A stretch of DNA of 61,374 nt, filler included, from Globobulimina sp. (Eukaryota): the NCBI GenBank assembly GCA_003354225.1. It is 22 parts of 22 records of this genome, joined end to end, with 100 filler letters (N's around TTAATTAATTAA, not from the genome) between each part and the next. Parts side by side here need not be neighbours in the genome. Positions count along the whole stretch, not along the records: positions 50,305 to 52,997 come from PIVH01005321.1; 21 more parts are not named here. One strand, 5' to 3'. Positions 1,846 to 55,890 of the stretch are shown in pieces (the first letter of the stretch is position 1; the number at the start of each line of letters is the position of its first letter). A program made the translations under genes and the position numbers. Under the pieces are notes generated by a model. That model was not told where the DNA came from and made no database searches. It was given only the letters and a program-made list of their open reading frames with translations.

Positions 1846-2020
1846 TATAAGCTGTTAACAATCAAATGAAGGGATGAGCTGAAGCCTGAGAGTCAAGTTG
1901 AATGAGGATAAATATTAAACTACTGAAAGGAGACAAATAACGTTCAAAGTCAGCTACAAAATCATAGTTTGAATGAATAAACAATACAACAAAAAACAAT
2001 ATCGATCAATTATCAACAGT

Positions 2021-2796: not shown

Positions 2797-5200
2797 TCTG
2801 TCATTTATCAAATTTGAACATCGTTTACCCGTTTGTGAATCCGAAAACTGCTTCATTGTGCAAGAAAAGTCGTACAAAAGTTGGAATATGTTGTAATCCA
2901 AATTGTAGACTTCCTTTGACATGGGAAACTCTTATTAAACAAAAAGTCAAATGTTGCATATGTAATGGTGAGTTTATGTTAATCGTTCTTTCTATACCAT
3001 TATTAGTTATTTTATGAATATATGTAACGTTAAAAAAATTTTTTTTTTATTATTTTCTTAAATGAAATCTTGGTTATAAAAAGTTACATTTTAAGATGGA
3101 ATTTGTATCTCACGCGACTTAAAAACGGGAGTTTTTGCGTCTGGTATGGAAAAGTGTCTTAAAGTAGGGGGGACTAAATCATTTTTAGTACAGAAGTACT
3201 AGATTCCACACTCGTCTCGGCCATGTAGTAAAGAGAGAAAACAGTGTCCGCCGTGGGACGTAGCGAACGGCTCGAACATACCCCCAAGCCTCCTTATTCG
3301 GAAGAGTATAGGGGGTATACAATCGAAATAGGGGTATTCGACCCCTAACTTGTGAAAATTAATATCACCACTACATTCAACGGCTTGCATTTCGTATCTG
3401 TATAAATTTTTATTCTAATTGGTGACTTATCACAGATTTTAGAACAAAAAATGGTTAATTCATGCAAAATTTTCACTATGGCAAAATGAGTCTCTCGATA
3501 TATTCGAGGCGTTGGCTACCTGTCATGGTGGACAATTTTTTCTCTGTTTACTACATGACCGAGTTGGCTATGGTATTTAGTGCTTCTGTACCAAAAATTA
3601 TTCACAGGTCTCTACTGTAAGACACTTTCGCATAGCTGACGCAAAAAAAGGTCGCGTGACTGAGAAATTTTATCTTAACTTATACTTTTATATTTATAGC
3701 ATTATATCACGTGGCATGTTTGGATGGTATCGAATTTTCTTCAAACGATTATGTCATTACGAAGAAAAATAACAACGAAGAAGTTATACATATCGTAAAA
3801 AATCCGTTTTTTATATGTTGTATATGTACATATAGAAAATTGCACCCTTTATACCCAAGTATATGTACTTCATATACAAATTATATAATGGAACTCAATT
3901 CACTCATATTTGAAGAAAAAAAGAATGCTTTGGTTACTTTGCCCGAAATGGTTCATTTTATTGAAATGAATAATTTAAACGAAGATATAACAAATACGAA
4001 CGTAAGTTTTATATTGAAATTTTTTATTATACTATTGTTAAATTTAAATTAAAAAAATTAATTAGATTTAATCTAATAAAAAAAATAGGAAAATTACTAT
4101 AACATAAATATTAAAAAATGTTTATTTAGTTCTTCGATAAATTAATACGATTATTGAATGAGAAAACAAGTTCTCAAGAATCTCATCAATGTGGTATAAT
4201 TATTATGGAAACAACAAAGTTGAGTGCAATTTTCACAAAAAATGGTTTTATTGATATGGATGAAAATATTGGAATTTTATTAAAGTACATTGGTGAAATA
4301 ATTTATATTTTAAAAAAAAGAGATGAAATAATATTATTACCTGTGGTCGATGGTAGTATGTATGTCGTTGTAAGTTATTGTTTTTATTTTATTATAATAG
4401 TATTTTTTTATAATTTACATATTAGAAAAATTGCTTAGAAAACGGTAGAAATTTGGGTTAAAACTAAAAATTAATTTATATTATTTAAAATTAAATTTAA
4501 AATCGTAATGTAAATGTATTATTAAAAATATAATAATAAAATTTTAGATCTGTTACAAATCTAATGGAAAAGTGTTGATATTAGATCCATTATTAAAACC
4601 CGGATTGTCAGAATTAGAAACAAAATTAGAATTGAACAAATGTGGTGCTATATGCAATAGTATTTGGTAAAGGAATAAAATTAATTTTTGTAAAATTATA
4701 TTTGTATCAATGATGTAATAATTTTAGTGGAATATTAAAGTTCATAACAAATGTGATGAAAGTTAAACTGACAGAAGATGATCATATTAATTGGAATGGT
4801 TTTTATATTGATCAAAATCCTACATGTGAAACAAAGTTGGAATCAATGGGAATAAGTTTGGGGATAATATATCATATATTGGCTGGTCACTCTTTTCATT
4901 ATTTAAATAGTGTGAGTAATAAATAAAATATTTTATGTATTACAAACAAATAATATGTTATAAATAAATATAAAAATTTATACTTGTTTATAAAATTTTT
5001 TTCAGGTATCTTCACACTACTGGTTGCAAAATTGTATGAGATACCTTGTTTGTCAAGATATATATCCAAAAATAAATGGAAACGAGCGTGTTACTTCTTT
5101 TGAAAAATACCGTAATACAAATGCAGGATGGCCAAAGGATAAAAGGAAAAGATGGATAAATCATCAAAGTTTTGAAAGTTTGAAGATTCAAACGATATGA
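2797..5200 (+). CDS. Partial multi-exon gene: PHD-like Cys/His finger followed by a possible degenerate Ulp1-like segment
   Basis: Exons split by very AT-rich GT-AG introns. The first splice (TGTAATG|gtgagt ... tttatag|CATTAT) gives CCICNALYHVAC. Later exons read ILLPVV, KVLILDPL and DQNPTC. The last exon follows ttttcag and ends near 5200. Internal exon structure is only partly resolved. Confidence 0.4.
3095..3674. mobile_element. 580-bp non-autonomous TIR element (MITE) flanked by TTAA, inside an intron; Kolobok-like termini
   Basis: About 190-bp imperfect inverted arms (shared blocks TCACGCGAC, TTTTTGCGTC, AAAGTGTCTTA, GTACAGAAG, CATGTAGTAAA). TTAA at 3091-3094 and 3675-3678. Termini are GA...TC. 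Confidence 0.75.
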
Positions 5201-5686
5201 AATTTTATATGATTATCGATTTTATGTGTTGCGTAAAAATTATTTTATATTTTTATTTTAATAAGAATAATTTAGGTATTAGACAGTAGCTAATTTTTTG
5301 TATTTATTTGCTTTTTTATTTATGCTTAAATTCAAACAAATTTCCGTATTTACTAATATTTGTTATTCGTTATTTTTATTTTGAAAATAAAAATATTAAT
5401 AAAACATATGTTTAAATTATATTACTTTATCTTTTATTGAAAGTCTATCTTAATGTATAATATAATATTGTCGGTAAATTTGAAAAATTAATNNNNNNNN
5501 NNNNNNNNNNNNNNNNNNNNNNNNNNNNNNNNNNNNTTAATTAATTAANNNNNNNNNNNNNNNNNNNNNNNNNNNNNNNNNNNNNNNNNNNNATGAAAAT
5601 TCAGTACATAACGGAGACCCCTAATGTAAATAATATAAAAGAAAACAAAAATAATTTCATATTTGACAAGTTTCATCAATATCCAA

Positions 5687-5826
5687 GAGCATCCTGTTTT
5701 CAGCGTCAGATTTTTATTGTTTCTGAGAAACGAAGGCAAACCTATATTTTTCCCTTTATCAGTCACCAGAAACGGTTTGCTTATACCTTACCCCAATAAA
5801 AATCTGACGCTGAAGACCGGATGCTC
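5687..5826 (+). mobile_element. MITE family A, copy 1 (140 bp)
   Basis: About 34-bp TIR GAGCATCCTGTTTTCAGCGTCAGATTTTTATTG ... CAATAAAAATCTGACGCTGAAGACCGGATGCTC; flanks CAA and TTT. Confidence 0.88.
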
Positions 5827-5910
5827 TTTTAGCTCATGCGACTTTTTTTTTAGATTGGATATACTATTCTTGAAACATTTTCACGTTGACATTAACTTGA
5901 AACTGGAAAA

Positions 5911-6053
5911 GAGCATCCGGTATTTAGCGTTAGATTTTTATTGGGGTAAGGTATAAGCAAACCGTTTCTGGCGACTGATAAAGGTAAAAATAATATAGGT
6001 TTGCCTTCGTTTCTCAGAAACAATAAAAATCTGACGCTGAAAACAGGATGCTC
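5911..6053 (-). mobile_element. MITE family A, copy 2 (143 bp, inverted relative to copy 1)
   Basis: Same TIR and internal sequence in reverse orientation, with several substitutions; flanks AAA and TTT. Confidence 0.88.
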
Positions 6054-6200
6054 TTTAAAGATTTTTTTTACTTGAAAGTTACTGCAGATTTTACAAGAAT
6101 ATTTTCCTGAAATGGTTTGCAAAATAAATTTATTATGGATATGATTGTGAAATACTACTTTCTGATTCAAAGGAGTTTCTGAAAAAGAATGATCTAAGGA

Positions 6201-6286
6201 ATGATATGATATATCTCAGATATATCTATATAGATCTCAGTTATATCTGATAAGTATCTAGATATATCTGAGATATATCATATCAT
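6201..6286. repeat. Hairpin with perfect 28-bp arms built from GATATATCT-like units
   Basis: ATGATATGATATATCTCAGATATATCTA (6201-6228) is the reverse complement of 6259-6286. Related units recur at about 6405-6450. Confidence 0.85.
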
Positions 6287-50104: not shown

Positions 50105-50357
50105 ACCAAAATCATAATCTCAATATTTTATAAAATATAAAATATCTAAAATAAGAAAACAAATAAAATGTGGAAAGCAATATCATTAACATTCATCATA
50201 TTATNNNNNNNNNNNNNNNNNNNNNNNNNNNNNNNNNNNNNNNNNNNNTTAATTAATTAANNNNNNNNNNNNNNNNNNNNNNNNNNNNNNNNNNNNNNNN
50301 NNNNCAGGTCATTCGGAAAAAAAACACGTCTGGACTGAGAATAATTAATTTATTGAA

Positions 50358-51197
50358 CTACAATGGTCTATCTGACAAATAATTATATACTCTCTCAAAT
50401 GGTTGAATATAGAAAGCTGTAACCATTGTTAAAATATCCTCAATCAAATAATTGCCATCATGCCATGCAGCAATCAGCAATATAATGTCATTGGATGGCA
50501 CTCTTATTTCATTGAATGCTGTTAATCCCCAACAAAAACGAATGTATCCAGTGATCAAAACAGTTTTATTTTTACCTAATTCCTCATATTGTTGGTGGAT
50601 ATGATATCGATACCATGCTTTTATTGTTGGTTTTTTTCTTTTAATCATCCATCGGTTAATGATAGCCAATGGCAAATTGGATGAATTGCGTAAATGATAG
50701 CCATTGGCTTTAAATGGAGGATCAACTTTTACATTGTCCACAGGGAAGCCAATCAGACAAAAATATTTCTCTTTTTTCAGTGTAGGAACAATAGTACAAT
50801 ACGGTGCGTTGAGAAGCCTGACAACGATTCTTTTTGTTTTATCAAAATGTTTGCTATATACTGCAGTTCGCCACGACTTAGATTTTGAATCATAAACACC
50901 AATACAACAGTCGTTATTTAATAATAGATTTAATACATCGCCATAAGTTTTCAAAGATTCAGCGACAAATGGCTCTGTTTGCTCTAAATCTGAAATATCA
51001 TCATTTATATCATGAGGAATGATATTGGAATCACTGCTGTCTATGTATGCTGCAGTGGTTGATTCCAACAGCGGATGATCAATTGCAATATTTCCTGAGG
51101 AGTCCGATTCATGTAATACTTCTAGTTCAAATTCAAGTTCTTGTGTTATATTCACTTCATTTGGTTTCGTAGTACCAAAAGAAAAACAAGTGCCCAT
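50358..51197 (-). CDS. Hypothetical protein with a probable N-myristoylation/palmitoylation motif
   Basis: MGTCFS start; LITGYIR...P.NDIILLI motif near the C-terminus. Confidence 0.65.
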   Translation of the reverse strand: MGTCFSFGTTKPNEVNITQELEFELEVLHESDSSGNIAIDHPLLESTTAAYIDSSDSNIIPHDINDDISDLEQTEPFVAESLKTYGDVLNLLLNNDCCIGVYDSKSKSWRTAVYSKHFDKTKRIVVRLLNAPYCTIVPTLKKEKYFCLIGFPVDNVKVDPPFKANGYHLRNSSNLPLAIINRWMIKRKKPTIKAWYRYHIHQQYEELGKNKTVLITGYIRFCWGLTAFNEIRVPSNDIILLIAAWHDGNYLIEDILTMVTAFYIQPFERVYNYLSDRPL

Positions 51198-51428
51198 TGT
51201 TTGAAAGCTAATGAAATGTTACAAAAAAAACCTGTTTTTGGTAATAGGATTTGGACTTTTGCAGTTGGGGATGGACTCGTTCATGTTAACCTTTTTTCAA
51301 ATGCGCTCATCCCAACACAAAAAATGGAAACAAGTTACATAGCAAACAAAAAACATACAATTACCACTTTTCTGAAAGTTAATATATATTCACATGGAAC
51401 GGATGATGGAAGTCCAAATTATGTAACA

Positions 51429-52997
51429 TTATGTTTTCAACATTGTGGCAGATGTGGCTAGCTCTTTCAGTCCCTCCTCGACCAGTGTCCCTCGTTGCGA
51501 ATTGCTTTTGAGTCTGGCATCTGATTTTTTTGTGCATTGACAACATCGACATTTCAAACATGCAACAATACCCATTCCAATCCATTTACACATAAAAGTA
51601 CAAAAATTATTTGCTTTAATATGTTGCATTTCCATCAATGGATCCACATCAACAAAAGAAGCAATTCTGCCGTTAACCCCTCGGAAATCTTCACGCGTTG
51701 GTTTAGCAAACCATGCCATTTTAAACTGATGTTTCCTTTCTTCAATATATTCTTCCAATTGGTGTGAATCCATATACAATTTTTTAGACTCCCAATGTCG
51801 TAGCCATCCGGCGTGTATCATAAATATCAAATTGTATGAAATGAAGACAAACACAAAAGCCGCAAAAGAGATGGGATAATCAAAAAGTCCTTCATCGCTA
51901 AACCATGGCACTGTTTGTATCGCAGTACATGCGGTCTGCAAAGATACGCCAGAAATAAACATAAAAGAAACAATAATATACTTATGTAACAACGTTAAGT
52001 AAGCCACATTTGGTAATTCCTCAAAAACAATATCTTGAAAAGCAACAGCCGTTAACAATAATGTCACTGCCAACGACATCCTAAAGCAAAGCATGACAAA
52101 CGCATTAAAGTAATAAAAAAACATATAGAACACAAACCTCTCACCAACAATGGCCACATCTCCCAAAGCAAAGCATGACAAACTCATCAAAGTAATAAAA
52201 AACATATATAACACAACATTCCATAAATAGACTGCATAGCGACGTCTCATTTTGAATCGAATGGTTAACATAAAATATTCCGTGTCGCTGCGCGATTCGT
52301 TTGGATTGGAGCTGCGAAATTCAATGCGAGAATTATGAAATTCCCATTCATCCAACACACTGAATGAGGGATCCACGCGTGCAAAATCTGAGGGAACTCC
52401 TTTTGGATCTCCTTTTTTGGTCCGCAATGAGGGTATAAATAACGCAATGTTTATACCCCAACCTTCCCTCATCACGATAGAGAAATCCTGGCAATCCACA
52501 GGAAAATTTTCTAATTCTAACTCTTCACAAAATGTAGCATCCACTTCCAATTTCATGCGACACATAAAAGCATGCTCTGCGTCAAAACCAACCAACTCTG
52601 AGGCAAAATCCTTGATTCTCTGGACGCGATACGGTCCATCGATGCCATAATCAACTTCTTCATATAAATGAGCTTCCACAATATTTAAGAATTCATAGCG
52701 AGGACGGAAAGGTGGATACCATTCAACTTTTTTGCTTCCTCGATTTTTCTGTACGTTGGATTTTGCGAATATGCGAATAATATAATTTTTAAATCATTAT
52801 TATTTTACTTAACTTTATATTCAATGTATGATAGATATCCTTCTTTCGTTAATAGCCAATTAAAGTATATATGGAATCTGCATCTATAGGTTTCACGGAC
52901 ATTATCCACATCAGATATTCGTTTGATTTTCAATCCAACATAAATGCGTCTCGGTGCTATTGGGTTTGCAAAATAAATCACTTCTTCTGTGTCTATG
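51429..52997 (-). CDS. Pentameric ligand-gated ion channel (Cys-less Pro-loop type), 5' truncated
   Basis: IYVGL.I.RISDVDNV.ETY, ELELENFPVDCQ (Pro-loop), pre-M1 MRRR.AVYLWN, M2 GERMSLAVTLLLTAVAF, LPNVAYLTLL. Introns 52749-52813 and 52081-52137. Confidence 0.9.
52081..52217 (-). repeat. Local direct repeat: intron 52081-52137 is a copy of exon segment 52163-52217
   Basis: Manual alignment gives 51 identities in 57 columns (4 substitutions, 2 single-base gaps). Confidence 0.95.
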
Positions 52998-55004: not shown

Positions 55005-55352
55005 TTAGCTTTCATTCACAATTGCTCCGTACACCTGTTTCAAAGCGGCGTTTATTGATACTATTTTCTGTTTACACGCAGCATTGTCTTGATCTAACGC
55101 TGTGTGTTCTAAAGCTTCGAGTAAATCTGCCGTTTGTTCAGCGCCAACGGCTTTTGCTGATGTTTTCAAAAAATGTGCCTCCTCCTTGATGGCAGTGTAA
55201 TTATTACTGTTATAGGACAGGGCAATTTTATTGACGGAAACTTTTGCTTGTTTCAAGAACTCAATTTCAAATTTTCTCGCCAAGGCAACATCATCCCCAA
55301 TGAGCTCACGCATAACGTTTCGATTGAGTATTGCACGTTGTGAATCAGTCAT
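55005..55352 (-). CDS. Bacterial Hpt (histidine phosphotransfer) protein
   Basis: EEAHFLKTSAKAVGA..LE motif. Overlaps the upstream gene by 8 nt and the next ATG (55015) in operon fashion. Confidence 0.9.
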   Translation of the reverse strand: MTDSQRAILNRNVMRELIGDDVALARKFEIEFLKQAKVSVNKIALSYNSNNYTAIKEEAHFLKTSAKAVGAEQTADLLEALEHTALDQDNAACKQKIVSINAALKQVYGAIVNES

Positions 55353-55790
55353 TGTGATACCACTCCTTTAACACCTGTTTAAGATCGGCAAGTTGAACCG
55401 GTTTACTAACAAAACTATTCATGCCTGCTTTATAACACCGTTCGGCATCGCCACTCATTGCCGCACCTGTTACCGCAATAATAGGAATAGGAACGCGATT
55501 CGTAGAGCTTTCCAATTTACGAATGGATTGTGTCATCTGATATCCATCTATTTTTGGCATATGACAATCGGTTAAAATAAGCTTATAGTCATTTTCTTGC
55601 CACTTTTGAATGCCTTGTTCACCGTCATCCGCAAGATCACAATCATAACCCAAGTTACTCATCTGTTTCATAATAAGCTTTTGATTTAGTGGATTATCTT
55701 CAACAATCAAGATCCCGCCACTAAGTGATTCTTCTTCCTCTTCTAATTCTAGACCTAGACCTTCCAAGTCCAATTCATCTAAAACCAATT
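55345..55790 (-). CDS. Bacterial receiver domain, C-terminus of a hybrid histidine kinase (5' truncated)
   Basis: ILIVEDNPLNQ, LILTDCHMPKIDGY, IPIIAVTG, AGMNSFVSKP. Confidence 0.92.
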
Positions 55791-55890
55791 NNNNNNNNNN
55801 NNNNNNNNNNNNNNNNNNNNNNNNNNNNNNNNNNTTAATTAATTAANNNNNNNNNNNNNNNNNNNNNNNNNNNNNNNNNNNNNNNNNNNN

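Follow-up and report, generated by a model that had tools for sequence, protein, structure and literature searches.

A young spliceosomal intron copied from a nearby exon of an ion channel-like gene in the foraminiferan Globobulimina sp.

The available text on 168 intron gains in Caenorhabditis gives a source for none of them (PMC9169325), and for Daphnia a source was found for one of 21 gains, as cited in PMC4974935. Where routes of gain were counted, the part of PMC3443670 at hand lists 188 gains by tandem duplication and five by break repair. Newer introns are described as tending toward proto-splice sites (bioRxiv 051292, available text), and alternative end joining as leaving templated insertions as a scar (PMC7407515, available text). 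Also compared, in their accessible portions, were PMC8469720, PMC13685798, PMC5647799, PMC3296678, PMC2891723 and bioRxiv 2022.06.08.495308. Within this literature, which leaves most subscription papers outside its scope and excludes supplements, where Daphnia or Drosophila cases of such a layout could stand, we found no published intron that copies a nearby exon in full and is set apart from it by a spacer; within the same scope as regards subscription papers, no study of intron gain in foraminifera was found.

The window (the whole stretch of DNA analysed, 61,374 nt) is a chain of short contigs of the Globobulimina sp. assembly GCA_003354225.1 (G000), and the intron described here is located on contig C5321 (PIVH01005321.1, approximately positions 50305-52997). 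This contig carries, on the minus strand, a pentameric ligand-gated ion channel (pLGIC)-like gene (51429..52994), whose 5' end is lost at the contig end and whose exons occupy positions 52814-52994, 52138-52748 and 51429-52080. A profile built on the channel gene plus seven homologues recovers chains of the GABA-A, GluCl and glycine receptors and of ELIC (best E 1.3e-10), the similarity spanning the ligand-binding and M1-M3 regions, as expected of a pLGIC; as a single unspliced sequence the gene gives a Pfam match under the cut-off (E 0.019). The nearest named homologues, from Bolivina argentea and Ammonia sp., are 71-72% identical, and Nonionella stella is also found in the first cluster of homologues, which places the host among the foraminifera. 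A large pLGIC-like family is present in this foraminifer, with members on 30 other contigs of G000. For comparison with sequencing runs, contigs of X1, X2, X6 and X8 were used, four of the ten runs listed, the others being X3-X5, X7, X9 and X10 (share of X9 and X10, 0.00). The first intron of the gene (52749..52813, minus strand; 65 nt, GT-AG), which is without match to its flanks, serves as an internal splicing control. The extracellular domain contains an in-frame 12-nt tandem duplication (52393..52416, minus strand), which is present in the X1 and X2 contigs and absent from X6 and from the orthologue proteins; the residues immediately upstream of it also differ from an otherwise conserved stretch.

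The second intron (52081..52137, minus strand) is a 57-nt GT-AG intron in phase 2, located within an Arg codon of the M1-M2 loop, and is a copy of upstream exon sequence. Its source, a 55-nt M1-coding stretch (52163..52217, minus strand) that is conserved in orthologues, includes a copied core of 52 nt (52165-52216, minus strand), and is separated from the copy by a 25-nt exonic spacer that occurs once (52138..52162, minus strand). In a global alignment, intron and source match in 51 of 57 columns, with four mismatches and two one-base T gains, while within the 52-nt core copy and source differ by three substitutions and two indels. The local score of the intron against its own upstream flank is 41.5, compared with a mean of 8.2 and a maximum of 17 over 20,000 windows of 300 nt drawn at random from this genome. 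The original prediction of an exon-copied 57-nt intron lying 25 nt from its source is thus borne out in coordinates, strand, lengths and identity, and at a level far above chance. Without the insert, the protein aligns through the M1-M2 loop with its paralogues and orthologues in a colinear manner, so that removal restores the M2 start, and the insert itself is, as had also been predicted, a multiple of three, free of stops and hydrophobic when read through (mean Kyte-Doolittle value 1.8 over the 18 inner residues). Retention would lengthen the M1-M2 loop by a hydrophobic stretch and probably disrupt the channel; a retained stop-free insert of 3n length would escape nonsense-mediated decay. 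A branch-point-like YTRAY motif with its A at -25 (52104..52108, minus strand) is a consensus match only, stands at the same place in the source, and is of a type found in the same zone in 45 of 150 putative introns, hence common by chance.

Similar to the tandem-duplication introns of the Rogers type, this intron consists of duplicated exon sequence, repeats AG/G at both junctions and leaves the protein unchanged. Unlike them, it has no AGGT in its 80-nt unit, its empty site reads AG/GA and its GT arises at the new junction; the arrangement is not head-to-tail, the 25-nt spacer being single and the intron measuring 57 nt against a source-to-copy spacing of 82 nt. Membership in this type was rejected on the AGGT and the head-to-tail and length features, exon homology and the unchanged protein being in agreement with it. 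As in the break-repair neointrons of Daphnia pulex, in the available account of PMC4202315, the intron is a young, short and clean exon insert, and the direct repeat at its junctions may be of the same kind. The Daphnia repeats measure 4-12 nt against 3 nt (AGG) here, most Daphnia inserts have no known source whereas here the whole body comes from a local exon, and 25 of the 27 Daphnia neointrons of 3n length contain a stop whereas this one contains none (PMC4202315, same portion). The copying of an insert from near the junction is shared with synthesis-dependent or polymerase-theta end joining, although the available text of PMC7407515 does not describe such templated insertions as a source of introns, and microhomology here is minimal (at most 1 nt at the 5' junction). 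Fungal same-gene duplicated introns (PMC3609843) and the local propagation of introns in Oikopleura (bioRxiv 051292), as described in the available texts, are likewise copies of nearby same-gene sequence; here, however, the donor is an exon, so that the copy cannot have come about through reverse splicing of an excised intron. An introner or introner-like origin was rejected: the best score elsewhere was 17 among the 20,000 random windows, none of 22 inverted pairs had both arms in the intron as terminal inverted repeats would, and when the intron with its surroundings (501 nt) was searched against the DNA of G000, by a method that may miss simple sequence, the locus alone was matched.

The intron is one of the few whose source remains legible, and arose by a modified form of known routes of duplication or break repair; its spacer layout departs from textbook tandem duplication and links exon duplication with break repair. 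The source, the direction of copying, the target site and the spliced product are all visible in this one case; taken alone it is a clear example and not a new principle, and its value would grow if a genome-wide count showed the layout to recur.

The same AGG flanks the insert on both sides, at the donor junction (52137..52139, minus strand; exon AG plus first intron G) and, as a 3-nt direct repeat, at the acceptor junction (52080..52082, minus strand; intron AG plus first exon G). Because AGG stands at both junctions, the acceptor AG can be the target's own without any mutation, and from the junction letters it probably derives from a duplicated target AGG and not from a point mutation. The junction then reads AGG, a 54-nt copy and AGG, with the 3' end unchanged, while an extra T at the 5' end converts the source form GTTGTG to the donor GTTTGT. 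Among 150 putative introns, which were predicted from open frames and a self-learnt matrix, have a flank-like composition and include many false introns, GTTTGT is the second commonest donor (11 of 150) and GTTGTG is found in none. Since 27 of the same 150 have a junction repeat of at least 3 nt, the AGG repeat is no proof of a staggered break. The insert is 58% T, a value reached by one of the 150 in this noisy set; together with an A-rich first intron, this outlying composition means that T-richness is no local requirement, and the earlier notion of a T-rich tract as a ready-made intron body is not upheld. Compared with X6 and X8, the Ser codon directly after the acceptor reads TCG (52074..52076, minus strand) in place of AGT, and the Arg codon at the junction (52138-52139) also differs, being CGG in those runs. 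There are four differences in 9 nt at the junction, compared with 25 in 823 elsewhere in X8 (P ~1e-4), and this unpolarised mutation cluster would fit a repair scar.

Our leading reading, held with about even confidence, is that this spliceosomal intron was recently gained in one foraminiferan lineage via a one-step templated insertion at a break. The target would have been the AGG Arg codon preceding M2, and a staggered break there would have been repaired by switching to a local template: about 52 nt of the M1-coding stretch, which lies 25 nt upstream, would have been copied and inserted in one step, the fill-in leaving AGG on both sides. The first AGG with the leading T of the copy would supply the donor AG/GT, and the T-run of the copy with the second AGG the acceptor TAG/G, making the insert spliceable from the outset with the protein unchanged; one extra T would then have given the donor GTTTGT, with the second T and the three substitutions arising later. 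While the homology, its direction, the splicing pattern, the absence from relatives and the AGG repeat are observed, we infer the single repair event, its enzyme and the order of the later changes. The source-spacer-copy layout recurs at two other candidate loci of G000, L189 (spacer of 112 nt) and L081 (15 nt). Among repair genes, G000 contains two Ku-domain matches and seven family-A polymerase matches, none of the latter assigned to polymerase theta; a ligase IV motif search matched nowhere in G000, which is uninformative on the presence of the gene. As read in X6 and X8, the start of M2 shares 10 identical nt with M1; this was rejected as the switching point, since it predicts a 51-nt duplication and not the present one.

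A two-step route, which yields the identical final sequence, is a genuine if somewhat doubtful competitor. In it, the 80 nt that begin with the source and end with the AG of the Arg codon would first be duplicated head-to-tail, and 25 nt would then be deleted. The new junction AG/GT and the AG of the second copy would first delimit an 80-nt intron with a poor GAG acceptor, and removal of the second spacer copy would then create the TAG acceptor and shorten the intron. The duplicated unit minus the core and the final AG is exactly 25 nt, the observed ends are obtained without point mutation, and selection for a YAG acceptor would set both ends of the deletion. Tandem duplications do occur in this genome (12 nt in the channel gene and about 70 nt in L168), and duplication is the best documented route in the available part of PMC3443670. 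Against it, a frameshifting intermediate with a GAG acceptor is required, and G at -3 has a value of 0.0 in the learnt matrix; the second spacer has left no trace, its deletion would have proceeded without microhomology, and L189 would likewise require a deletion of 112 nt.

The route originally proposed, in which the inserted 55-nt copy still ended in GG and gained its acceptor through a subsequent G-to-A substitution, is quite improbable. The global alignment, with 51 of 57 columns matching and a mismatch at the acceptor, can be read in this way, but the allele would have been an unspliceable 55-nt frameshift until the change occurred, and one event more is needed than with the AGG repeat; the claim that one substitution created the acceptor is not supported.

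Contigs from X1 and X2, which come from two studies and whose run kind is not on record, omit precisely these 57 nt, whose ends read CT..AC on the plus strand; at the level of assembled contigs, the splicing check set out with the original prediction therefore came out in its favour. Both also skip the 65-nt first intron and break between neighbouring genes, and so behave as transcript assemblies. Over the joint, the X2 contig has no other letter differing from the assembly on either side. The GT...AG ends, the exact excision in the X1 and X2 contigs and the restored homologous protein are those of a U2-type spliceosomal intron. No retention of the insert was seen among the listed contigs, which are assembled and not raw reads and from which rare forms are dropped. 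The X6 and X8 contigs (~97% alike) and a ~90% alike X2 contig are also net 57 nt short; as the first intron is missing there too, they are uninformative on their own DNA. That there is no intron at all, the insert being an in-frame insertion allele or a chimera of assembly or amplification and the transcripts coming from an allele that never carried it, is very improbable. The insert is present in the assembly only, no run recorded as DNA or RNA contains the stretch, it is of 3n length and stopless, and contigs lose rare variants; yet a chimera would be an exact copy, whereas the core has five differences, GT and AG stand at exactly the skipped place, and apart from the skip the X2 contig agrees with the assembly letter for letter where it crosses the joint. 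Template switching during cDNA synthesis at the repeat was rejected, since it would delete 82 nt and not 57.

The site was then compared in relatives. Of the 30 other family contigs, 24 span it by at least six residues on each side and four are without coverage; an intron-size insertion is found in none of the 24, nor in two further contigs that cross the site, one of them with a 1-nt frameshift. An apparent intron at the site in paralogue L023 was rejected, being a 1-nt frameshift at the M2 start. Paralogue L003 has a 57-nt intron of its own, located after M2. Six of the seven homologous proteins reach the site, and all six are contiguous there. The EukProt homologue proteins are presumably transcript-derived and would as such be uninformative on intron absence; P0006 has a 21-residue intron-like read-through elsewhere and P0003 stems from a 6.4-kb contig, so that these two proteins were probably called from DNA. 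A metagenome scan gave two weak loci only and no close relative. The intron is thus absent, as the original prediction required, from both paralogue contigs (24) and orthologue proteins (six). An old intron position overwritten by ectopic conversion from the nearby exon is scarcely credible: introns exist elsewhere in the family (L003, P0006), but this position occurs in none of the 24 paralogues and in no orthologue protein, and conversion requires prior homology.

Two of the three core substitutions would alter residues conserved in orthologues (a Leu and a Ser), the third being silent; at least two of the three therefore arose in the copy, which makes the exon the source. With about 6% substitutions and two slips, the copy is young and not newborn, although error-prone synthesis at insertion could explain some of its differences. 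The description of an intron caught at birth holds as regards youth and fails as regards birth, three substitutions and two indels having accumulated in the 52-nt core. The 57-nt segment is a real, young, exon-derived spliceosomal intron with a readable source, and its recent gain, by local templated insertion or by duplication plus deletion as originally predicted, is supported by the splicing pattern, the absence in relatives and the exon copy.

To gauge the frequency of such events, the window was scanned together with 947 kb of G000, made up of 180 long-contig stretches of 5 kb and the paralogue loci and amounting to 1.3% of the assembly. The scan yielded 72,193 GT-AG candidates whose flanks are open, of which 210 (39 clusters) resemble a flank, and a second scan gave 74 local repeat groups, of which 46 were dropped as array-like and 28 kept. 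Besides the present case, one exon-copied candidate (L189) and one locally copied intron (L081) were found, both putative. L189 (contig C539 of G000, 3040-3096, minus strand) is a 57-nt putative intron that contains an in-frame stop and has open frames of 351 and 238 codons on its two sides. The core of this intron agrees with an exon 112 nt upstream (3209-3239) in 29 of 31 positions, a score reached by none of 20,000 random windows. It cannot be polarised, because G000 gave no paralogue and none of 2694 candidates qualified as a homologue at E 0.001. L081 (contig C431, 3691-3833, minus strand) consists of look-alike putative introns of 66 and 62 nt around a 15-nt micro-exon that encodes part of the Walker-B motif in an ABC transporter gene; the two introns agree in 56 of 62 aligned letters, which would make L081 a case of same-gene intron copying as in fungi and Oikopleura. 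In L168 (contig C518, ~1857-1992, plus strand), ~70 nt of a long reading frame are duplicated in tandem, perfectly and out of frame, without AG/GT for clean removal; this duplication is either very recent or an assembly error. L168 was dropped together with L057, L059, L070, L088, L124, L153, L155 and L167, as non-coding, protein-repeat, inverted-repeat or tandem cases.

Local copying into introns thus recurs in this genome, but is rare and not dominant among the candidates in 0.95 Mb, and the suggestion of a general mechanism did not stand, with only one further exon-copied candidate in that span. That a lineage-wide, sequence-blind process of local copying at the DNA level regularly makes introns from a nearby exon or intron is a tentative proposal, which we consider unlikely. 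If true, it would provide tens to a few hundred datable examples (Poisson range ~2-400 in 70 Mb, extrapolated from one candidate per 0.95 Mb), and same-gene duplicated introns, which are often credited to RNA-level transposition, could arise by templated repair.

Two other parts of the window deserve mention. At ~5640-6215, direct and inverted repeats lie nested within one another in a contig of low coding content and may represent a fold-back element or an amplification chimera. At ~55005-55842, a possible contaminant contig is suggested by two frames of bacterial appearance on visual inspection (histidine-phosphotransfer and response-regulator-like).
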